Positions 31,081 to 60,112 of a DNA stretch of 64,000 bases are shown one piece after another. Both the position numbers and the translations under genes were made by a program. The stretch's first letter is position 1. Every line of letters begins with the position of its first letter. The notes under the pieces were generated by a model, which saw only the letters and a program-made list of their open reading frames with translations, was not told the DNA's origin and searched no databases. The DNA is from Candidatus Bathyarchaeota archaeon. Its GTDB lineage: Archaea > Thermoproteota > Bathyarchaeia > 40CM-2-53-6. The stretch is taken from NCBI GenBank assembly GCA_005881695.1, contig VBBT01000104.1, positions 14,941 to 78,940 on the forward strand, in the 5' to 3' direction.

Positions 31081-31623
31081 TTAGGGGTTCACGTTAATTT
31101 TCCCATTCTGCATGAACACATGGATCGGACAGGAGATGTAACAGTAGACCGTAAACGAGCCTAATTGATTAGCGGTAAACGTCACATCACTACACTTGCC
31201 GGGACCCAGCGCAAATCCGCTGAAGTAGCGCTGTATCGCAAACCCATGAGACTGAATTGTATCATTGTTTATGACATGAATCGTAACGGTTCTCCCCATG
31301 GTAACATTCATTATAGGCCAAGAGCCGCTTTGGAACTTGCTACCGTTGAACCCGACATTCATCCCTTCGTTAGCCATGACGACGACAAAGTAGGTAGAGC
31401 TTGCCGGCACGCTCGCGGGTCGGGCCCAACAGTTGGTTGTCCCGAGACCGAAGAAATGAAACTTATACGCCGCAGCGAAAAACCCGGTGACTGCCACGAC
31501 GATGAGTACGATCACAAGCACCCGTCGCAAAAGTCTTGTTCGCGGGAGTTCTTCCCCGCTTGAGCTCCCAGCTAGCTTTCCGTTACTACTAGTCTCTGAG
31601 TGGACCGGCAAGGTAAGTTGCAT
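31081..31623 (-). CDS. Membrane-anchored blue copper (amicyanin/plastocyanin-like cupredoxin) protein
   Basis: N-terminal TM helix, then a cupredoxin domain. Ligand pattern: ...INNDTIQSHGFAI... and YCYISCPIHVFMQNGKINV. Compare amicyanin YHCTPHPFMRGKVVV, with ligands His, Cys-x2-His-x2-Met. A paralog sits at 38968..39372. Confidence 0.6.
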   Translation of the reverse strand: MQLTLPVHSETSSNGKLAGSSSGEELPRTRLLRRVLVIVLIVVAVTGFFAAAYKFHFFGLGTTNCWARPASVPASSTYFVVVMANEGMNVGFNGSKFQSGSWPIMNVTMGRTVTIHVINNDTIQSHGFAIQRYFSGFALGPGKCSDVTFTANQLGSFTVYCYISCPIHVFMQNGKINVNP

Positions 31624-31800: not shown

Positions 31801-32607
31801 ATGCTGGGATTCGCTGAGAGTTTCCTCCCGTGGACTGCATCGACGCTGATTCCCGCGTTTGTAGGGTTACTCCTTATCGTGTTGGTAGGAATGAAATTAC
31901 AGGCAAGATACGTTGCCGCGTTTGCTTTCGGGATTTTGTTCTGGTTTTTCGTGGACACGATAACCGGGGCAGCAAGCCTCGATGTCAACTCGGGTTTCTC
32001 CGGAGGCCTAGGTCAACTTGCAATGATAGGGCTCTTTGTTATCGGCCTGCTCTTCTTCTTTTCAATTGATCGGAATCGAAATATCTTCTCGCCTGAGTTA
32101 GCAATTGGAAAATATGGTTTGGCGATACCCTTGCTAGTTGCGACGGCATTAGGAGTGCACGGGCTCGGCGAGGGCGCAGCCTTCGGGGGAACAGCTGCGC
32201 TGACAACAAGCACGTCCCTTCTCGACACATTCGGCGGCGTTTCCGGCGGAGTAGCGTACGTTCTACACAAGGCACTTGAACCTATGATAATAGGCGCTTG
32301 CTATTGCGCATACTCTATCCAACACGCTAAGACTACTACAGTTCGCCTGAGAGACCTTGCAATTCTGAGCATAATCTTCACGATTCCCTCGCTCATCGGC
32401 GCTGCCAGCGGCTATTACCTAACCTACGACAGCAGCTACTTCTACGCCCTGGGCACCGGAACAGCAATCTATGCCGCGGTGAGGCTCTTTGGACCGATGT
32501 TCAACAAGGCGAACCCTGCAAGCTCGAAGGAATCGATGACGATGGCGGTGCTCATAACCCTTGGACTCCTAACAATCTATTTCGCTGCCTTATTCCATTC
32601 AGGCTAA
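31801..32607 (+). CDS. ZIP-family (ZupT-like) metal cation transporter
   Basis: 8 TM helices; HGLGEGAAFGG and LHKALEP motifs resemble the ZIP TM4/TM5 H-x-x-x-EG signatures. Confidence 0.4.
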   Translation: MLGFAESFLPWTASTLIPAFVGLLLIVLVGMKLQARYVAAFAFGILFWFFVDTITGAASLDVNSGFSGGLGQLAMIGLFVIGLLFFFSIDRNRNIFSPELAIGKYGLAIPLLVATALGVHGLGEGAAFGGTAALTTSTSLLDTFGGVSGGVAYVLHKALEPMIIGACYCAYSIQHAKTTTVRLRDLAILSIIFTIPSLIGAASGYYLTYDSSYFYALGTGTAIYAAVRLFGPMFNKANPASSKESMTMAVLITLGLLTIYFAALFHSG

Positions 32608-32737: not shown

Positions 32738-33124
32738 CTATCGGACCACGAGGAGCCTGACGGTTTTCAGCTTCTTCTCTTTCTGGAAGGCACTAGTCAT
32801 CGAAGCGACCTTCCTCCCTTCCCCCTCTAGGAGAAAGAGTTCGAAGCAATTGTTTTGGCCCATCTTATTGTGAATATGGGTTCGCACAATGTCATCATAG
32901 GCATGTTTCAACCTAGTGATTGGCTCTTCATTCGACTCATCGTGTGTAACTACGAGGATTGCAGCTACTCGGCCGATGAGTGACGCTTTCTCTCTTGAGT
33001 CAGATAGTAGGAGACGTATTGCGGCTCTGACTACGTCAGATCTCCCTGCGTATCCTTGGGATTCCTGAATCGCTGTCATCGAATCGACCAGTTCGTTGGG
33101 TAACGAGACGCTAACGATGGGCAT
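32738..33124 (-). CDS. nikR: Nickel-responsive transcriptional regulator NikR
   Basis: Ribbon-helix-helix N-terminus VSVSLPNELVDSMTAIQESQGYAGRSDVVRAAIRLL plus a C-terminal metal-binding domain with H-x-...-H-I-H-...-C (VTHDES...RTHIHNKMGQNNC); 128 aa. Confidence 0.8.
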   Translation of the reverse strand: MPIVSVSLPNELVDSMTAIQESQGYAGRSDVVRAAIRLLLSDSREKASLIGRVAAILVVTHDESNEEPITRLKHAYDDIVRTHIHNKMGQNNCFELFLLEGEGRKVASMTSAFQKEKKLKTVRLLVVR

Positions 33125-33218
33125 GTGTCTGTGCCATAATAATTTCCAGCTGACTCCTTATATTAGGATTATTAAAATCCGGAAAATACTTAATAATTCC
33201 ATCTCAATCTCGCGTAAC

Positions 33219-34085
33219 GTGATCCCTCTTCTCCCAGAATGGATCGTTCTCTTGCTTGGCTCTCTGGGTCTCGGAATGCTCCACGGGGTCATTCCGGACG
33301 AACACACTTGGCCAATCACTTTCAGCTATTCAGTGGGATCAGCTACAGGGAGAGGAGGAATGCTCTCGGGAACGTTCTTCGCCTCAGCTTTTACACTCCA
33401 ACGCGCAATTATGGCTCAGCTCGTCTACTTCGCCCTCGCTAGTTATCTCGCCTTTGACGAGGGCTTGAACGCGCTTGTCTACGTGGCGGTCGGGATCGCG
33501 ATGTCCCTTGCGGGGTACTTGATATTGTCTGGGAAATTGCCGTCTTGGCATCCCCTTGCTCGATTCCTGCGCACTCATGCTAGAACACATTACGACGAGA
33601 AAGGCATCTCAAGACGAGTTCCCACACACTGGTGTGTAATCCATGGATTCATCGCGGGCTTCGGTGTCGATACAGGCCTCTTCACCACTTTCATCTACTT
33701 GGTCGCTGTTCCAGCGATGCCAGCAGCGTATCTTGGATTCGCACCTGGAGCGGCATTCGGCTTTGGCACACTAATCGTGCTGCTTGCGATTGGTTCAGTG
33801 TTCGGCGGTGTCCTCCAGATCGCGAAGAAGTGGGGTCCGGAGCGAGTCCAGCTCTTCGGCACAAGAGCCGGGGCACGCAGCCTATTTTACGGCGGGATAA
33901 TATTCATCATCGCGGGAATACTCTTCCGAACCGGTATACAAGACACCATTCCGCTGGATTTTGGAAATCTGATTGTCTTAGCGTTTATGATCGGGGTAAT
34001 CGTTCCGGTAATGATCGTCACCTGGAGAGAAGTCAAAACGATCCCTGCGCCTGAAGCATTGACTCATATCGCCAGATCTTCCTGA
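33219..34085 (+). CDS. NicO/RcnA-like nickel/cobalt transporter family membrane protein
   Basis: LHGVIPDEH in TM1 resembles the NiCoT H-x4-D-H signature. It is divergently adjacent to nikR. The proposed start is GTG 33219, because the annotated upstream part of the ORF is AT-rich and promoter-like. Confidence 0.45.
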   Translation: MIPLLPEWIVLLLGSLGLGMLHGVIPDEHTWPITFSYSVGSATGRGGMLSGTFFASAFTLQRAIMAQLVYFALASYLAFDEGLNALVYVAVGIAMSLAGYLILSGKLPSWHPLARFLRTHARTHYDEKGISRRVPTHWCVIHGFIAGFGVDTGLFTTFIYLVAVPAMPAAYLGFAPGAAFGFGTLIVLLAIGSVFGGVLQIAKKWGPERVQLFGTRAGARSLFYGGIIFIIAGILFRTGIQDTIPLDFGNLIVLAFMIGVIVPVMIVTWREVKTIPAPEALTHIARSS

Positions 34086-34380
34086 CCCTGCACGGGCACG
34101 TTTACCCCATCACTATCGGATAAGTTGGGGCGGGAGCGGGATTTGGATACCAGTTTACTGGTACACATAAACGGCTCATGGGCAATCCCTCCCAAGAGTT
34201 CACACACAGTGAGCCACTCTAATTCCAATAATTAACGTTGAACAATGAAACTTTCCGTGAGGTGGGTTTCCAGCCGGACGCAGGTTTCAAGGGATTCAGA
34301 CGCAACACTTTTACTTTTGTAAGGCACAGCGCTTAAGTGGCGCTTTCGAAGCAGGTCACGTGCAGTCTCTTGGAAACTGA

Positions 34381-35137
34381 GAAGTGCTCCTATTGTGGGG
34401 CGTCCGTCAAGAAGGAGAATCTGGGAGGACATGTTGAAAGAGTTCACCCCAAACGGTCTAGGTCGTTCGAGGCCAGGCCTAAGACGGTAAGTAAATCTAT
34501 CAAGACTGGTTCCTCCTTTCGTACCCATCGAAAAAGAAACATCGCGATTCTATCCTTGGTGCTGTTGACAGTTATCGGGATTGCCGTTCTCGCCTTTCCA
34601 GCGCAGAATATGAATATGCCAGGAACAAATCCAGGTCCAGCCTCCCCTGGGTCTATTGAACAGTTCAGTTATTTGAACCAGCAGGTGAGTCGTTGTTTGT
34701 GGGGTGCAAACATGGGAGACGAAATGGGCTACACGAATTGGATTAACGGGTTGGCAGACGATACTTACCTTCAGGGAGCCTGCTGTAACCCTATGGTCGC
34801 AACGGACTACCAGAATCAAATTTCCGAACTTTCGAACTATACGTCTTTGTCTTCGCTGATTGCTAAAGACCCGTATAACATCCCATCTCAGGTTGCAAAG
34901 GCTGATATTGCTGGGGGAAAACTGATTCTCACTAGTGACCAGCAGTCCGTCCTCGCAAATGCCGCAACCTTGTCAAAGGAGAATTGGTGTTGTTGCCAGT
35001 GTTGGAGCTGGTATCAGCACGAAGGACTCGGCAAGATTTTGATTGTCAACTACGGATACTCTGCACAACAGGTCGCTCGTGTCATTGACCTCGAGGCGTG
35101 CTGTGGTACCGGTACCGGCCCTATGAGGATGAATTGA
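34381..35137 (+). CDS. Membrane-tethered protein: N-terminal C2H2-like zinc finger, basic linker, one TM helix, Cys-rich extracytoplasmic domain
   Basis: ETEKCSYCGASVKKENLGGHVERVHPKRS...FRTHRKRNIAILSLVLLTVIGIAV aligns closely with the N-terminus of the 37256..37876 protein. The extracytoplasmic part has CC, CCCQC and CC clusters. The start is proposed at TTG 34381 by analogy with the paralog; the ORF track starts at 34337. Confidence 0.5.
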
Positions 35138-35402: not shown

Positions 35403-35711
35403 TCAGCAGGATCCATTCATGTTGTATTGCTGCATCATCGCCTGGCACTGTGCCATATCATATGACCCCATCATGTTCGCGCATTGAGACATATCATTCG
35501 AACCCATCATGGATTCGCATTCAGTCATATCAGTGTGATCCATCATCGACTGGCACTGAGCCTGTATAGAGCGTGGATTTCCCATCATGTTACTCATCAT
35601 CCCCCAGCCGGTAGGTGAGTGCATAGCCGCCTGCGCATAGACTACCGCACATACAGCAAATAGGGTTACTGAGATGGCGACAATAACTGCTAACCTGCGT
35701 CTTTCTCCCAT
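35403..35711 (-). CDS. Secreted methionine-rich repeat protein (putative Cu(I)-binding, CopM/PcoE-like)
   Basis: Signal/anchor helix, then repeats C-x-SMMGSNDMSQC / ANMMGSYDMAQC / QAMMQQYNM. These are M-x-x-M / MM motifs; 102 aa. Confidence 0.5.
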   Translation of the reverse strand: MGERRRLAVIVAISVTLFAVCAVVYAQAAMHSPTGWGMMSNMMGNPRSIQAQCQSMMDHTDMTECESMMGSNDMSQCANMMGSYDMAQCQAMMQQYNMNGSC

Positions 35712-35882: not shown

Positions 35883-36161
35883 CTAGCTCGTTGTTCTTCT
35901 CAGTGCGTATTTTCTGAGAAAGTGGGTGTAGGTCTCCTCGCTGCAGACGAATGGAATGTCCGGCCGCCCTTCGATCTTGACCTCAGCGTCAATTACCACA
36001 GTCGGGACCACCGTCACCCCGTACTTCTTCGCCAGGTCCATGTTCTCGGACACGTCGTGGATTGTCAGCTGGCAACCGTTGCATTTGCCTGCCTCAATCT
36101 CGTTCACGAACTCGACGCAGAGTGGGCATCCCGCGGAGAATACTTCGATTTTGTGCGGCAT
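35883..36161 (-). CDS. Small thioredoxin-fold protein (CxxC)
   Basis: VFSAGCPLCVEF redox motif plus a second CNGC; 92 aa. Typical of the Thioredoxin_3 / small glutaredoxin-like family. Confidence 0.55.
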   Translation of the reverse strand: MPHKIEVFSAGCPLCVEFVNEIEAGKCNGCQLTIHDVSENMDLAKKYGVTVVPTVVIDAEVKIEGRPDIPFVCSEETYTHFLRKYALRRTTS

Positions 36162-36236: not shown

Positions 36237-36971
36237 ATGGCATTTGGAGTATCTTCTTCATTAGCATGCGTGACCTGCGGTTGTAGAGAAACCTCATGTG
36301 AAGGCTGCCATACCCCCTCGGACTGCTCCAACTGTGCGTCATGCTGCTGCAATACCTCTCATCAGTCATGGAGACAAGCGAGAATCAGGAATGGAATCAA
36401 GATCGAATACATCAGCTCGGGATGGATGACGGTTGAGGTTTTGGGGTCGATTGGATTTGGAGTGGTTGCCGGAAGTTTCGCCCTATTGGCGTTCGGGGGC
36501 GATAGTCTGATTGAACTGATTTCTGGCATCGCAGTCTTGACAAACTTGCGAAAGGACTCCAGTAGCAATACCGGTAATGGAATGTACGGCAAGAGGACGG
36601 AACAATTCACGAGCGCGCTGCTCTTCGCTCTTATTCCCGTCATTGGGTTAGGCATGGTTTATTCGTACTTTTCGGGGTTGAAGCCAGAGGGATCGGTACT
36701 GGGGATCGCGATAGCTATCGGAGCGGTTATCGTGATGCCTTATCTGTACGTTGAGAAGAAAAAGATAGGGAGAGAGACTCGGTCGCTGCCTCTCTCGATT
36801 GATGCTATAGAGTCGGTGACCTGCATTTTCATGGCCGTAGCTCTCCTCGGTGGCCTTCTTGCAGAATATTTCTTGGGGATCTGGTGGGCTGACTATCTAG
36901 CGACTGGTGTCATACTCGCATTCGTGGCGAAAGAAGCTGTTGAATCATACGGCGAAATCCGTGAAGAATGA
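36237..36971 (+). CDS. Cation diffusion facilitator-like metal efflux protein with Cys-rich N-terminus
   Basis: N-terminal CVTCGCRETSCEGCHTPSDCSNCASCCC, then TM helices with FALLAFGGDSLIELISGIAV, which resembles the CDF motif ALLADAGHMLTD. 244 aa, shorter than typical CDF proteins. Confidence 0.5.
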   Translation: MAFGVSSSLACVTCGCRETSCEGCHTPSDCSNCASCCCNTSHQSWRQARIRNGIKIEYISSGWMTVEVLGSIGFGVVAGSFALLAFGGDSLIELISGIAVLTNLRKDSSSNTGNGMYGKRTEQFTSALLFALIPVIGLGMVYSYFSGLKPEGSVLGIAIAIGAVIVMPYLYVEKKKIGRETRSLPLSIDAIESVTCIFMAVALLGGLLAEYFLGIWWADYLATGVILAFVAKEAVESYGEIREE

Positions 36972-36998: not shown

Positions 36999-37179
36999 TG
37001 GTGCGGGGGGTGGGATTCGAACCCACGAAGGCCTACGCCACGGGATAGCACACCCGCGCTTCGCGAGGGCATTGATCGTTCCTAAGCCCTCGCGGAATTG
37101 GGTCTTGAGTGTAGCGCGCGCATGCCAAGCGCGACCCGCCCATTTAGTCAGATGTTTGACCTGACTCTGGTACCCCCGC
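36999..37179 (-). tRNA. tRNA gene with a large intron or introns (anticodon unresolved)
   Basis: Minus-strand sense 3' end: gtgggTTCGAATcccac-cccccgc-a-CCA, giving T-arm, 7-nt acceptor strand, discriminator and CCA. The complementary 5' acceptor strand gcggggg is 181 nt upstream (rc of 37173..37179). The roughly 105 extra nt include a perfect 9-bp hairpin, cgcgagggc...gccctcgcg, consistent with one or more introns. Confidence 0.5.
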
Positions 37180-37255: not shown

Positions 37256-37876
37256 CTAAGTTGCGAGCGTCATCACAATCTGCTGCGGCTTGTCCCTAAG
37301 CACTACGTCTTGTGTGGCCGAAGGTAGGACTTGCCCGTCGACGCTGACGGATGAGACGGGATGCCCGTTGATGCTGCTTCCATCGGAGGGTTGTCCCCAG
37401 ATGGCCAGGAACTGGTGCAGTGTAAAGTCTCTAACTGTATTCGATTCAACGTGGATAAGCCCGCTAGTGTCGTGGGTGTGTATTGGTGCCAAGCCGCTCA
37501 AACCATATTGATCTAGAGAATGGTCCTTCCATAGACTTGGATCAATCCCGATTTGGGCGGGGACCTGCACTGGGCTACCGTTCAAGGTTATGGAGAGTTG
37601 CGGATGGATATGCATGCGCAGAGTGTTGGCTGCAACAAACTCTACAGCAACAATTGAAACTCCCATAACAGCAAGCACAATGAGTGAAAGAAGTAGCATG
37701 TTTTTCTTCTTGTGGCTTCGGAAGGCTGAAGGGGCTCTGGCCAGGGGCACCGTCTTGGGTTGAACGAGGGACCCGGCTCGTCTTGGGTGCACCTTTGCGT
37801 AGTGAGACTTCAGATTCTCTTTTTTAACTGGGCTCCCGCAGACGGGACATTTCTCAGATTCCAATAACAGTATCAT
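37256..37876 (-). CDS. Membrane-tethered protein: N-terminal C2H2-like zinc finger, TM helix, extracytoplasmic HTHD-motif domain
   Basis: MILLLESEKCPVCGSPVKKENLKSHYAKVHPRR (C-x2-C-x11-H-x4-H), a basic linker, a TM helix, then ...LAPIHTHDTSGLIHVESNTVRDFTLHQFLAIWGQ. It is a paralog of 34381..35137 at the N-terminus and of 38091..38702 in the extracytoplasmic domain. Confidence 0.5.
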   Translation of the reverse strand: MILLLESEKCPVCGSPVKKENLKSHYAKVHPRRAGSLVQPKTVPLARAPSAFRSHKKKNMLLLSLIVLAVMGVSIVAVEFVAANTLRMHIHPQLSITLNGSPVQVPAQIGIDPSLWKDHSLDQYGLSGLAPIHTHDTSGLIHVESNTVRDFTLHQFLAIWGQPSDGSSINGHPVSSVSVDGQVLPSATQDVVLRDKPQQIVMTLAT

Positions 37877-38090
37877 ACCACAGCTGAAAGCTAAGAACTT
37901 GTCCCTATTGGAGTCATTATCCGCCGTTAGTCAGAGAGAGAATTTGTCTTGACCACCTTGAGGCTTCCTTCACAGCTAAGACGGTTCTCTTGATCGTTCG
38001 CGCCACGTCCGGTAAGTTAGAAGGGAATGCAGCTAGGCAACCTGCAGTCGCGCTGAGCAGACGGAAAGTATTATTGGACGCAGACATTTC

Positions 38091-38702
38091 TTGGATGCCT
38101 TCGGAGGCGGGCGCTTGGCGAAGACGAGCAGGAAGCAGAGGATTTTACAAGATGTCCAGAGAAAGCGCCGCCAGAGAGCAGTAGTAACAGCGATCATAGC
38201 GGCAATCCTTATCGCTGTGATAGTCGGAGGCATTTATGCGCTCATCCTACCCAAAAACGAGCAGACTATACTCATACCAGCTAATATCGGGTTTGACAGC
38301 AGTTGTGCAAGGCCGCTGCACACCCATGACGTCTCCGGAACAATTCATGTTGAAACAAATGTAAATCAGAACTATTCAATCGCCGATTTCTTTCTGATCT
38401 GGGGAAAAGTTTTCAATAGCAGCGGAATATTTCAGTCGAACCAGCCCTTACCTTCCTACTTGAACTGCATAACAGGTACTCTGCTTTACCACTCCCATCC
38501 AACACTGACCATCATATACAAGAAAGACTTCCCAACTCAGATCAACATGACCGTCAACGGCACACCGGTGTCACCTAACCCAAATCCGAACCTTCAACTG
38601 CCCCGAAACGCTGCAACCCCGAGTGCACCCTGCACCCCAGGACCATGCGAGGCTTTCAGTATCGTCATAACGTATGGTCCAGGCATACCAGCTAGCTTCT
38701 AG
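38091..38702 (+). CDS. Membrane-anchored HTHD-motif domain protein (paralog of 37256..37876, lacking the zinc finger)
   Basis: Basic N-terminus, a TM helix, ARPLHTHDVSGTIHVETNVNQNYSIADFFLIWGK, and a C-terminal Pro/Cys-rich tail PCTPGPCEAF. Confidence 0.5.
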   Translation: MDAFGGGRLAKTSRKQRILQDVQRKRRQRAVVTAIIAAILIAVIVGGIYALILPKNEQTILIPANIGFDSSCARPLHTHDVSGTIHVETNVNQNYSIADFFLIWGKVFNSSGIFQSNQPLPSYLNCITGTLLYHSHPTLTIIYKKDFPTQINMTVNGTPVSPNPNPNLQLPRNAATPSAPCTPGPCEAFSIVITYGPGIPASF

Positions 38703-38967
38703 TAAAAGCCGCAGCGGCTTGAAAGGAGAGTGCCTGCTCCAGCGTATCTCCTCCGAATCCGTTCAGAGGACGTCTCCTCGCGTCTTTCGGGGGTAACTTT
38801 TTGCCCAAACCACTTGAATGCTCCGAATTGCGCTTACTGAATTCCCACACTGAATGACACGGACCATATGTGCCAAGACTCTTTTAGTTGGTTTCCTGTA
38901 CGGTAAATCCGCCTGGCTACTCCACCCCAAGACAGGTTTCGAGAGCAAACTATTGAGAACTAGCGAG

Positions 38968-39372
38968 ATGGTCGTAATCGCGCTCGTTGCCGCATCTCTC
39001 GCAGCAGGCGGAGTGTTCGCAGTAGTACTCAGCCCTCCCCCGTCTCCTTGCTCGGGAGCGACAGGAGCGATTCGGTCCTTTACAATTATGGTAGATTTGA
39101 CAGGTTACAACGGGAGCCAATCTCACAACGGTTCTTGGCCTGTCGTTTCGGTTCAGCGTTGTGACAATGTGGTTTTCACAGTTATCAATAACGACACCCA
39201 ATCTCATGGGTTCGCAGTGACCTATTACTCCAACGCCGGTTTGGAGCTTGTAGGAGGTGCACGCCAGACGCTGAAGTTTCAAGCTACAAGGACTGGAGAG
39301 TTCCAGATATATTGCACGATCAAGTGCTCGGTTCACTACCTAATGCAAAATGGTCTTCTAAACGTAACCTAA
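38968..39372 (+). CDS. Membrane-anchored blue copper (amicyanin/plastocyanin-like) protein, paralog of 31081..31623
   Basis: INNDTQSHGFAV and YCTIKCSVHYLMQNGLLNV match the same His / Cys-x2-His-x2-Met pattern as the paralog. The start is proposed at ATG 38968, just before the TM helix. Confidence 0.6.
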   Translation: MVVIALVAASLAAGGVFAVVLSPPPSPCSGATGAIRSFTIMVDLTGYNGSQSHNGSWPVVSVQRCDNVVFTVINNDTQSHGFAVTYYSNAGLELVGGARQTLKFQATRTGEFQIYCTIKCSVHYLMQNGLLNVT

Positions 39373-39395
39373 GCATCCCTGGCGAACAAACAATC

Positions 39396-40916
39396 ATGCG
39401 ACTATCATACGCGATCGCGCCAATCCTGATCCTCATTTTCTTCTCCACACCAGCGTCCTACGCAACTCCCCTCACTCGTGCAGTTAGCCAGCCAGATATT
39501 GTTCAATCCAGTCCTCAATCCTACGTAACTTTCATGCAGAAACCTCTAGATTCGAGCCCCAGCCCATGGGTCCTTTATCCAACAGACACGGTCGTGTGGG
39601 TCGCAGGAATATCCTCAGGAACGCCGCCGACCTCTCAGATCCGGGAATACTTCATAGTGAATGGAACTTCGAAACCCGTAGCCAATCTCCCGAACGTAAT
39701 AGTCAGCTCCTTGGTTGCTGATTCTCTGGGCCGAGTTTGGTTCACCGACAATTCGACACTTGCATACTACGACAGCCAACGCCTGACCGTGAATAAGACG
39801 ATAACTTTTCCTAACCAAAACCTAGAGTACTTGGCGCTAGATCATCAGGAGAGAATATGGATGACAGTGTTGGGACCTAATGGCGCCAGCAACGTCGTCA
39901 TGTTCGATCCCACTAATAGTTTGAACCGGACCTATCTGGTTCCGACCACCAACGCGTTCATTCAAGGAATAACCGCAGCTCCAGACAATACAGTATGGTT
40001 CGCAGAAGCCGGGTCGATGAAGCTTGGTCATCTTGCCTGTGACAGCTGCGACATCACCGAGTTTCCTTCACCTTCGTCTCTCAATCTAGCAGCGCTTTCA
40101 CAGGTGGCGGTTGATAGATCAGGCAACATTTGGTTCACCGATCATGCGGGCGACAACCAATTTGGAGTGTTTGACTCACATGCCAATACTTGGAAGATTT
40201 TCCCTATCGGTTATTGTCCAGATGCTTGTGTTTCCGGCCTTCCCAACGCCATTTTTGTTGACGCATACAACAAGATCTGGTTCTCGGAACACATTGCTGG
40301 TAGAGTAGGACGCTATGACCCCTCTACTGGTGTCTTGACAGAATATGTTGTCTCTCTCACTCCCAACGCTTTCCCATTGATCTGGTGGGCAAGCCCTGGG
40401 CCCAACAATCTCGTATGGTTTGTTGCAAACGGACTCGGCGAGGTAGGCTACATCAACGCGAGCCTACCCCTTCCGCTGACCCTTACTGGACCTTCAGGGG
40501 AGGTTGCAATCCAAAAAGGAACCACATTGAACATTTCTGTCATCGTAGACTCTCAAGCCCTACAAACCCTGTCCTTCGGCGTTTCTCCGTTGACTCAAGA
40601 CCAAGAGTCTTCGAACTCTCCTGCCCAATTGTACGGGTCTGGGCCTTCAGACATCGGGCCGAACAATAATCCTCAGGCGGTCAACATCGGCATTTCTGCG
40701 GCCTGGAGTGCGATCTCTGGGGCCCGGTACGTAGCTCTCACCGCCACTGAGGGCAACGTCGCAGTAACCATTCATGTCAAAGTAGTAGTTGTTGAGAGTT
40801 CGGTGCCTTTTGTCGCTTTAGGTTTCTCATCCTCGATCGTTCTTGGAGGTTTCGCAATCTACTTGCGAAGGCCTAGGAAACCTAAGCTCCAGCCCTTGAA
40901 AAAAGTCAGAAGGTAG
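39396..40916 (+). CDS. Secreted beta-propeller protein with WF(T/S)(D/E) blade repeats and a C-terminal TM anchor with basic tail
   Basis: Signal peptide MRLSYAIAPILILIFFSTPASYA. At least six repeats: RVWFTDNS, RIWMTVLG, TVWFAEAG, NIWFTDHAG, KIWFSEHIAG, LVWFVANG, reminiscent of Vgb-lyase / NHL-like propeller blades. The C-terminus VPFVALGFSSSIVLGGFAIYLRRPRKPK resembles archaeosortase-type sorting signals. Confidence 0.5.
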   Translation: MRLSYAIAPILILIFFSTPASYATPLTRAVSQPDIVQSSPQSYVTFMQKPLDSSPSPWVLYPTDTVVWVAGISSGTPPTSQIREYFIVNGTSKPVANLPNVIVSSLVADSLGRVWFTDNSTLAYYDSQRLTVNKTITFPNQNLEYLALDHQERIWMTVLGPNGASNVVMFDPTNSLNRTYLVPTTNAFIQGITAAPDNTVWFAEAGSMKLGHLACDSCDITEFPSPSSLNLAALSQVAVDRSGNIWFTDHAGDNQFGVFDSHANTWKIFPIGYCPDACVSGLPNAIFVDAYNKIWFSEHIAGRVGRYDPSTGVLTEYVVSLTPNAFPLIWWASPGPNNLVWFVANGLGEVGYINASLPLPLTLTGPSGEVAIQKGTTLNISVIVDSQALQTLSFGVSPLTQDQESSNSPAQLYGSGPSDIGPNNNPQAVNIGISAAWSAISGARYVALTATEGNVAVTIHVKVVVVESSVPFVALGFSSSIVLGGFAIYLRRPRKPKLQPLKKVRR

Positions 40917-59077: not shown

Positions 59078-59195
59078 GGCCGGGATTCCTGAGCCTGGTA
59101 CAGGGCAGTCCACTAGAACCGTGTGGGCCAAAGCCTGGAAAAATGGGCTCCTGTCAGCCTGTGGTCCTTGCGGGCCGCGTGGGTTCAAATCCCAC
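59078..59195 (+). tRNA. tRNA gene, probably containing an intron (anticodon unresolved; D-arm and T-arm are canonical)
   Basis: gccggga-tt-cctg-agcctggta-cagg ... gtggg-TTCAAAT-cccac-tcccggc-g-CCA. The 7-bp acceptor stem, D-arm, T-arm and encoded CCA are all present. About 40 extra nt lie between the D-arm and T-arm, so a canonical anticodon arm cannot be drawn without removing an intron. A possible class II variable hairpin is ggtcc-ttgc-gggcc. Confidence 0.5.
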
Positions 59196-59335
59196 TCCCG
59201 GCGCCAACCTAAGAATCAGCTGTGACGAGCATGTTTTCTTCGGTGTGTTTGGTGCATCTCTTTCGGCCCGAGTCTTCGTATTGCTCTCTTGTGAATATAC
59301 TTGTTGAGAGGATTTAGTCCTAGGGTTTTTGAGAA

Positions 59336-59998: not shown

Positions 59999-60112
59999 TG
60001 GTGCGGGAGGTGGGATTCGAACCCACGAACCCCTACGGGACAGGCGCCTCAGGCCTGCGCTTACACGACCCTTGATCGAAGGGTCTCTTTGACCTGGCTT
60101 GGCAACTCCCGC
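59999..60112 (-). tRNA. tRNA gene with extra sequence (intron), possibly class II tRNA-Leu(GAG)
   Basis: Minus-strand sense: gcgggag-tt-...-caggc-cTGAGgc-gcctg-tcccgtaggggttc-gtggg-TTCGAAT-cccac-ctcccgc-a-CCA. Acceptor, T-arm and CCA are clear. There is a 5-bp stem with a 7-nt loop, cUGAGgc (U33, GAG, G37), followed by a 14-nt variable arm. About 28 extra nt in the D-region include the hairpin gaccctt-cgatc-aagggtc. Confidence 0.45.

Follow-up and report, generated by a model that had tools for sequence, protein, structure and literature searches.

Two head-to-head genes in a stretch of DNA from a Candidatus Bathyarchaeota archaeon (contig VBBT01000104.1, positions 14,941 to 78,940; the whole 64,000-nt stretch is hereafter the window, and coordinates refer to it) encode paralogous membrane proteins, P1 and P2, that share a His-rich domain of a large and previously unnamed prokaryotic family. 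P1 is an open reading frame (ORF) of 206 aa (37256-37876, minus strand), and P2 is an ORF of 203 aa (38091-38702, plus strand), with a 214-bp spacer between them. The true start of P2 is probably the TTG codon at 38115, giving a protein of 195 aa, as judged from homologues, P0121 among them, whose first residue corresponds to this codon (homologues are cited here by P0 numbers and genomic loci by L numbers). The original prediction, which was made from the sequence of this region, described two divergent, paralogous ORFs with a common His-rich motif; both sets of coordinates hold, and the two proteins align by BLASTP with an E-value of 2e-13 (32% identity across 114 aa). The motif is HTHDTSGLIHVE in P1 (37445-37480, minus strand; H133, T134, H135, D136, G139, H142, and E144, placed on a β-hairpin) and HTHDVSGTIHVE in P2 (38319-38354, plus strand), where its residues are invariant within the alignment of the P2 clade. 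When all six reading frames of the window were searched with a regular expression for HTHDxSGxIHVE, these two sites were the only hits; the mean for shuffled windows was 0.015. P1 has 479 homologues, of which all that are named belong to Candidatus Bathyarchaeia, and P2 has 73; orthologs of P1 and P2 are present in the syntenic loci L001 and L002, respectively.

The two proteins differ at their N-termini, and the zinc finger does occur in one gene only, as had been noted. P1 is a type-II membrane protein that comprises a cytoplasmic C2H2-like zinc finger (CPVCGSPVKKENLKSHYAKVH; CX2CX12HX4H; 37787-37849, minus strand), a transmembrane helix (approximately aa 60-82; 37631-37699, minus strand) evident as a hydrophobic stretch directly preceded by RSHKKKN, and the His-rich ectodomain (aa 83-206; 37259-37630, minus strand), which contains no cysteine. 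P2 lacks the finger and has just a basic N-terminal stretch and a transmembrane helix (38178-38246) ahead of a permuted His-rich ectodomain. By the positive-inside rule, both proteins would be oriented with the N-terminus inside and the C-terminus outside, such that the C-terminal domain is extracytoplasmic.

The layout of P1 raises the alternative that it is a one-component transmembrane sensor, in which the ectodomain would sense a ligand or metal and the finger would signal via DNA, RNA, or a regulator. The arrangement of finger, transmembrane helix, and ectodomain is kept across the P1 homologues of Bathyarchaeia and is also found in the unrelated-looking P0226; the finger and transmembrane module recurs at the N-terminus of the ORF at 34337-35137 (48% identity across 83 aa, E = 2e-23), where it carries a different ectodomain; a gene for the regulator NikR lies nearby; and genes for ECF sigma factors occur near bacterial family members in five loci. 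However, P2 and the great majority of the family have a signal anchor only and no cytoplasmic domain, and because the family is mostly finger-less, sensing would be at most a lineage-specific add-on. The finger, whose spacing fits the C2H2 pattern CX2-4CX12HX3-5H, is also short and falls below threshold for all Pfam zinc-finger models (E = 0.013-0.34, including zf-Di19 at 0.04 and zf-C2H2_4 at 0.34), and the spacer (37877-38090) shows no evident DNA target. A sensor function for P1 is thus regarded as very unlikely.

The motif as originally described (H-x-H-D...H-x-E) stands but is incomplete, in that a third conserved element, HxHP, had been missed. In P1 this element is HIHP (H89, H91, P92; aa 89-92; 37601-37612, minus strand), which lies upstream of HTHD on the first β-strand of the structural model described below (model residues 8-10). 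In P2 it lies downstream of HTHD (aa 134-137; 38490-38501, plus strand), within a transposed segment (PLPSYLNCITGTLLYHSHPTLTIIY; aa 119-143; 38445-38519, plus strand) that bears the HxHP strand and one conserved Cys. Residues 119-141 of P2 (PLPSYLNCITGTLLYHSHPTLTI) align with aa 41-64 of the non-permuted homologue P0167 (BLASTP E = 5e-8, 67% identity), and the remainder of the two proteins is colinear (E = 2e-26), with a 25-residue gap exactly at the present place of the segment. The HxHP strand follows HTHD (as LPxYLxxC...YHSHPxLxI) throughout the P2 clade (all of P0121-P0152), within which the candidate ligand residues are all invariant. The homologue P0185, at locus L126, has the ancestral order and lies at the same place in the chromosome, in a series of family gene, small cupredoxin, propeller, S10, and EF-1alpha; thus, the strand transposition arose among positional orthologues of one line. 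For the permuted ectodomain of P2, AlphaFold2 gave a poor model, with a predicted local distance difference test score (pLDDT) of 54. This clade-wide transposition constitutes a natural experiment on a putative metal site that survives a change of topology.

The family was defined operationally by HxH(P), [LI]HTHD, Gx[IL]H[VI]E, an invariant Trp, and an extracytoplasmic domain of ~120 aa; P1 and P2 carry every one of these elements. With a cut-off of E ≤ 1e-3, an exhaustive profile search gave at least 3437 cluster representatives (clustering at 50% identity), of which 2309 also passed E ≤ 1e-10. GTDB species genomes were scanned with a degenerate nucleotide pattern that encodes HTHDxxGx[IL]H[IV]E, which yielded at least 120 loci; all 120 were confirmed by the hidden Markov model (HMM) of the family (E < 1e-14). 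The bacterial hosts include Actinomycetota, Chloroflexota, Eremiobacterota, Patescibacteria, Burkholderiaceae, Oxalobacteraceae, Gemmatimonadota, Acidobacteriota, and Nitrospiria, and the archaeal hosts include Nitrososphaerota, Poseidoniales, Thermoplasmata, Micrarchaeota, and Aeropyrum. The majority of family members are 150-240 aa in length and have a signal anchor. In larger members, the fusion partners are all extracytoplasmic modules: Redoxin, cyclophilin together with CHRD and dockerin, Ig-like, SpaA, DUF4214, and FG-GAP domains.

In an alignment of 58 diverse homologues, H89, H91, T134, H142, E144, and W160 (P1 numbering) are invariant, so that both His residues of HxHP are on par with the conserved positions of the other motifs. 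Conservation was also calculated for three homologue sets that had not been chosen by motif. Across these sets, H89, H91, H133, H135, and H142 are conserved at 96-100% (97-100% for H89 and H91), E144 at 93-100%, D136 at 78-93%, T134 at 98-100%, and W160 at 100%; every one of these positions is likewise invariant within the permuted P2 clade. When the sets are pooled (387 distinct homologues, sequence-weighted), the frequencies are 0.98 for each of H89, H91, H133, and H135, 0.99 for T134 and H142, 0.96 for E144, 0.84 for D136, and 1.00 for W160. The His, Asp, and Glu positions of the proposed site are therefore conserved among homologues.

No match was found for P1 or P2 in profile and sequence searches of Pfam (at or near the gathering score), NCBIfam (above the curated cut-off), and the PDB (E ≤ 1e-3); in Pfam, the two proteins gave just zinc-finger or transmembrane noise below threshold. 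The domain was likewise without a Pfam, NCBIfam, or PDB-sequence match in 18 bacterial and archaeal relatives, including those from Trinickia, Paraburkholderia, Amycolatopsis, Arthrobacter, Streptomyces, Kitasatospora, Nitrosopumilus, Aeropyrum, and Curtobacterium; the corresponding region was unmatched by Pfam in the 10 multidomain members scanned; and none of the 313 homologues listed has a precomputed Pfam annotation. RefSeq and PLSDB annotate the homologues as "hypothetical protein," and the names of cluster members are uninformative. A UniRef label of "DUF4115" on P0459 was not reproduced when checked. The family appears to be unstudied: a literature search on the HTHD motif returned nothing relevant, and the passages of a Nitrososphaera copper-limitation transcriptome paper (PMC7785015) that matched the terms searched contain nothing on it.

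The AlphaFold2 model of the P1 ectodomain, generated from the 58-sequence alignment, is confident (pLDDT 94.1; predicted template modeling score 0.88). The model has strands at residues 8-10, 13-18, 21-23, 52-54, 60-65, 92-99, and 119-124 and a helix at 73-80, with HxH on strand 8-10, HTH on strand 52-54, and HVE on strand 60-65. The domain is thus predicted to be a compact, β-rich fold of ~120 aa, in which HxH(P), (P)[LI]HTHD, and Gx[IL]H[VI]E would occupy three adjacent strands, followed by a helix that ends at the invariant Trp. A mean-field covariation analysis over all alignment columns was swamped by gap artifacts, and a rerun on low-gap columns was used instead; the signal is weak, and its top-ranking couplings over long range include R87-I132 and I132-E144. 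These two couplings place the three motif strands side by side, and I132-E144 supports the hairpin formed by HTHD and HVE.

A Foldseek search of the P1 model against the PDB gave no significant match at a cut-off of E ≤ 1e-3 (best E = 0.11). The structures returned are the β-domains of transcobalamin/haptocorrin and of streptokinase, ThiS, MoaD, Urm1, and the C-terminal domain of superantigens, and the scores for these β-grasp proteins are at chance level (E = 0.11-2, probability ≤ 0.38, TM-score ≤ 0.39). Readings of the domain as an M23/LAS peptidase, as Cu,Zn-SOD, or as NosZ-like received no HMM or fold support, and the neighboring propeller has few His residues. The domain, which had gone unrecognized in the original prediction, is without a match at the level of sequence, profile, and fold; it belongs to none of the families tested and is rated a new family, with a putative function of a known kind.

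The pattern of conservation bears on what this function might be. His/carboxylate residues form i, i+2 pairs on three adjacent strands, are near-invariant, and are kept despite the strand rearrangement in the P2 clade; a transition-metal site is the simplest explanation for this combination. Metal sites are typically built from such i, i+2 ligand pairs on neighboring strands, as in carbonic anhydrase, cupins, and Cu,Zn-SOD, and the chemistry of His, Asp, and Glu fits Cu(II), Ni(II), or Zn(II). The five His, together with the Glu and the Asp, would supply the ligands for a transition-metal site, or for two such sites, on the sheet, and the domain would bind or relay the metal outside the cell. 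It is also conceivable that no metal is involved, and that the domain is a β-grasp-like module for binding a ligand or protein, or a small hydrolase, with the His residues serving catalysis, hydrogen bonding, or pH sensing. The sole fold resemblances, very weak as they are, are to β-grasp proteins, several of which bind soluble ligands, and fusions to adhesin-like modules exist. Against this, seven conserved His, Asp, and Glu residues are arranged as i, i+2 pairs on neighboring strands, the genomic context is repeatedly metal-related, and neither a hydrolase family nor any known non-metal-binding family was matched; we hold a function without metal to be distinctly unlikely.

Copper is favored as the metal of the proposed site because of the association of the family with PCuAC, SCO1/TlpA, CopA, and a CuA-like cupredoxin. 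The family gene adjoins a PCuAC gene in Pseudonocardiaceae (L006, with a 4-nt overlap), in Streptacidiphilus (L090, with a 6-nt gap), and in L085 (with a 25-nt gap). In eight loci of Eremiobacterota/Vulcanimicrobiota, a TlpA-like Redoxin gene abuts the family gene, and SCO1 is nearby in most of them. In Amycolatopsis (L004), the family gene comes after a TlpA-like gene, and CopA is 2 kb distant. In L076, the family gene comes after a gene for a CopA that bears a cupredoxin domain at its N-terminus, and CopA also adjoins the family gene in Nitrosotalea (L044) and Nitrosopumilus (L048). Within 7 kb, the Nitrosotalea locus encodes two family members, one of them of the P1 type, together with a NikR-like protein, a homologue of the Cys-rich ectodomain of the window ORF at 34337-35137 (L044:1198-1878), an Lrp-family regulator, CopA, and a DsbA-like protein; the P1-type member shares the insert LWKDHSLDQYG with P1, and the Cys-rich C-terminus of the Lrp-family regulator is putatively TRASH-like. 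In the Nitrosopumilus locus, the family gene lies between two P-type ATPase genes, beside a homologue of the Thioredoxin_3 protein encoded in the window.

Thiol-redox genes also occur beside family members and allow a different reading, in which the domain would use its metal for redox catalysis in concert with thioredoxin-fold partners. It might oxidize thiols, serve a DsbA-like protein as terminal electron acceptor, or reduce Cu(II), and the metal would then be catalytic rather than cargo. In four Poseidoniales loci (L065, L074, L098, and L105), thioredoxin-like, VKOR, and family genes overlap or abut, and in L064 a VKOR gene is followed by the family gene, with a thioredoxin-like gene nearby. 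The TlpA-like Redoxin genes of Eremiobacterota and Amycolatopsis, the DsbA-like gene of L044, and the Thioredoxin_3 genes near family members in the window and in L048 are compatible with such a partnership, as are fusions to Redoxin/AhpC-TSA in two of the 10 multidomain members scanned (P0215 and P0243). On a plasmid of Anoxybacillus amylolyticus (NZ_CP015439.1; L129, 4396-6432), the SkfF permease of a sporulation-killing-factor (skf) operon has the His-rich domain as a 220-aa C-terminal extension, such that TIGR04405 spans only aa 3-459 of its 678 residues, and no SkfH ORF was found after the SkfF gene. The putative thioredoxin encoded in the skf cluster is SkfH, and a disulfide links Cys1 to Cys16 in SKF (PMC8172795); the His-rich extension may substitute functionally for SkfH. 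However, this fusion is a single case, with none other among 120 close relatives. In addition, the P1 ectodomain is without any cysteine, and any thiol chemistry would thus need to be metal-based; the conserved Cys pair of most other members looks structural, so that the thioredoxin-like and VKOR neighbors may merely fold the domain; and adjacency to PCuAC, SCO1, and CopA suits metal relay at least equally well. Redox catalysis by the domain, the main rival to metal relay, is therefore considered rather unlikely.

Our preferred reading, on which our judgement is evenly balanced, is that the ectodomain of P1 and P2 would be the extracytoplasmic transition-metal domain of a large, pan-prokaryotic family, with a role in metal capture or relay, most plausibly of copper, beside thiol-disulfide oxidoreductases. 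Its partners would be copper chaperones or pumps as well as the thiol-disulfide oxidoreductases, and in Bathyarchaeia the CuA-like cupredoxin encoded immediately downstream of P2 would be the likely client. The metal-binding site suggested in the original prediction thus retains its basis in conserved residues, to which the metal and thiol-redox context is now added, whereas its framing around a tRNA gene does not hold (see below).

Several observations weigh against this metal-relay reading. A gene for a thioredoxin-fold protein, SCO1, VKOR, PCuAC, or CopA lies within 3.5 kb of the family gene in only 22 of the 120 sampled loci, and in an unbiased Pfam census of 195 immediate neighbors the only recurrent types were thioredoxin-fold proteins (~8-10), VKOR (five), and an epimerase (six, all in one lineage); moreover, thioredoxin-fold genes are frequent in any genome. 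Locus L124 is without metal context. The metal/thiol-redox context is therefore real yet patchy and lineage-restricted, and each association may represent a single evolutionary event. The clues to the identity of the metal conflict, with NikR pointing to nickel, ZnuABC, a CDF exporter, and a putative ZIP-like protein pointing to zinc, and CopA, PCuAC, SCO1, and cupredoxin pointing to copper. With respect to the site itself, the covariation register weakly suggests that H133 and H135 point to the opposite face of the sheet from H89, H91, T134, D136, H142, and E144; the five His need not all share one site, and there may be two. In a persisting subclade of Bathyarchaeia (P0113, P0117, and P0120), LLTRD replaces HTHD while HIHP and IHVE are kept, and this subclade may have lost or altered one putative metal site; P0216 is likewise without some of the conserved positions.

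A bolder version of the metal-relay reading is that the family is an ancient metallodomain with a new fold, common to Bacteria and Archaea, and a missing component of extracytoplasmic copper handling, acting either as a Cu(II)-capturing relay to PCuAC, Sco, or cupredoxin, or as a copper-dependent thiol oxidase that replaces thioredoxin/DsbB-type partners; Bathyarchaeia would have added zinc-finger transmembrane signaling, and one clade would tolerate transposition of a ligand strand. We give this combination a low probability.

The stretch at 28.5-40.9 kb in the window looks like a metal-homeostasis island that starts with an ABC-2 exporter; a foreign origin for the island was rejected, as composition is uniform. 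Downstream of P2, and conserved as its neighbor, is a gene for a membrane-anchored, cupredoxin-like protein (38854-39372, plus strand) with HGF and CxxxCxxHxxM motifs that are CuA-like; it matches Cupredoxin_1 (E = 0.005) and, at E = 0.0024 and thus weakly, the CuA domain of Thermus ba3 COX2, in an alignment that brings the ligand motifs into register. A membrane-anchored paralogue with the same HGF and CxxxCxxHxxM motifs is encoded at 31081-31623 (minus strand). The two window cupredoxins resemble a CuA center without the remainder of cytochrome oxidase subunit II. Both Cys are kept in their orthologs in L001, the relative in L126 has one Cys, and the ORF in L002 is divergent at the C-terminus. 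The cupredoxin gene beside P2 is followed by that of a Vgb_lyase-like β-propeller with a C-terminal transmembrane anchor (39312-40916, plus strand; PF24684, E = 5.5e-19), which in Bathyarchaeia keeps its place beside family members (L001, L002, L003, L125, and L126), with two copies in L125. The set of family gene, cupredoxin, and propeller beside S10/EF-1alpha is present in L001, L002, and L126 and partial in L003 and L125; L126 additionally has ZnuABC and NikR upstream.

On the other side of P1, the island encodes a membrane protein that is putatively ZIP-like by eye (31801-32607) and has no Pfam match, NikR (32738-33124, minus strand; NikR_C, E = 8.7e-13), a further membrane protein (33096-34085), and the Cys-rich protein (34337-35137, plus strand; CCCQCWSWY) with the P1-type finger (34385-34447) and transmembrane module and an ectodomain unrelated to that of P1. 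These are followed by a small exported protein without a Pfam match (35403-35711, minus strand) that contains four tandem repeats of ~12 aa of the form MxxCxxMM (QAQCQSMM, MTECESMM, MSQCANMM, and MAQCQAMM) and looks like a Cu(I)-type Met/Cys-rich binder; by Thioredoxin_3 (35883-36161, minus strand; Pfam E = 2.7e-11); and by a CDF exporter (36237-36971, plus strand; Cation_efflux, E = 1.2e-10). The N-terminal tail of the CDF protein is unusually Cys-rich, with ~12 Cys in the first 40 residues (CVTCGCRETSCEGCHTPSDCSNCASCCC).

The original prediction placed a tRNA gene between the two paralogues. This was ruled out: no tRNA was detected there by ARAGORN or by Rfam at the gathering threshold, and the sole structure seen in the divergent spacer (37877-38090) is a weak 10-nt inverted repeat, with one chance-level Rfam match (E = 0.15). 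The only tRNA-like element near P1 and P2 lies instead 77 nt downstream of the P1 stop codon, between the CDF gene and P1 (36999-37179, minus strand; 181 nt), and has the acceptor strands GCGGGGG/CCCCCGC, a T-arm (GGTTCGAATCC), and an encoded CCA. It has a weak match to the Rfam tRNA/tmRNA clan at 36999-37057 (E = 6.6e-5) and no ARAGORN call. Given its length of 181 nt, this gene presumably contains introns; brute-force removal of introns followed by ARAGORN gave Glu, Ala, Pro, Leu, or Ser, depending on the cut. Elsewhere in the window, the intron option of ARAGORN reports intron-containing tRNAs for Pro(GGG) at 59079-59206 (plus strand) and Gly(CCC) at 59999-60112 (minus strand).

If metal capture or relay is indeed the function of the family, thousands of "hypothetical proteins" would gain one, including those of Streptomyces, Micromonospora, Arthrobacter, Mycolicibacterium plasmids, Paraburkholderia, ammonia-oxidizing archaea, marine Poseidoniales, and Patescibacteria. 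The family would then be a new player in extracytoplasmic copper trafficking (CuA/cuproenzyme assembly and copper tolerance), especially where the set of chaperones is incomplete. With its small size, confident model, and cultivable hosts, it is a good target for structural and metal analysis.

Known systems resemble the family in different respects. In its combination of a cytoplasmic zinc finger, one transmembrane helix, and an external domain, P1 is similar to zf-HC2 regulators and anti-sigma factors, but its finger is C2H2-like rather than HxxxCxxC, and most family members are finger-less; Archaea are not known to have sigma factors. Proteins of the β-grasp type, including those that bind soluble ligands, have a similar size and a mixed sheet with one helix, and are the only structures returned by Foldseek; however, the scores are those expected by chance, and none of these proteins has the His motifs. 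The three-His sites of α-carbonic anhydrase, cupins, and Cu,Zn-SOD, in which one strand provides HxH and the next a His, similarly have i, i+2 pairs on neighboring β-strands, but this is analogy only: these proteins have unrelated folds and show no homology to the domain, and the His-rich family has up to seven candidate ligands.

Closer parallels are found among extracytoplasmic copper proteins. The Cu(II) domains of the CopC/YcnI type are also extracytoplasmic, single-domain, β-rich, and His-dominated, and occur in Actinomycetota and ammonia-oxidizing archaea; they show no match in sequence or fold, their motifs differ, and the His-rich family is without an N-terminal His brace. Sco1/SenC and TlpA-type CuA assembly proteins act in the same compartment, share neighborhoods with the family in Eremiobacterota and Amycolatopsis, and are reflected in its Redoxin fusions, but they have another fold, the P1 ectodomain is without CxxxC, CxxC, or any Cys, and there is no HMM match. 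PCu(A)C (PF04314) is likewise small, β-rich, extracytoplasmic, and anchored or secreted, with conserved ligand residues, and is encoded with Sco1 and TlpA-type genes; by contrast, the His-rich family has no match to PF04314 by the same method that found the true PCuAC neighbors, and contains neither the H(M)X10MX21HXM motif nor the Met ligands that belong to it. Because genuine PCuAC genes adjoin family genes in L006, L085, and L090, the family accompanies PCuAC rather than replacing it. Overall, the domain would act most like the periplasmic metallochaperones, from which it differs in fold and in motif.

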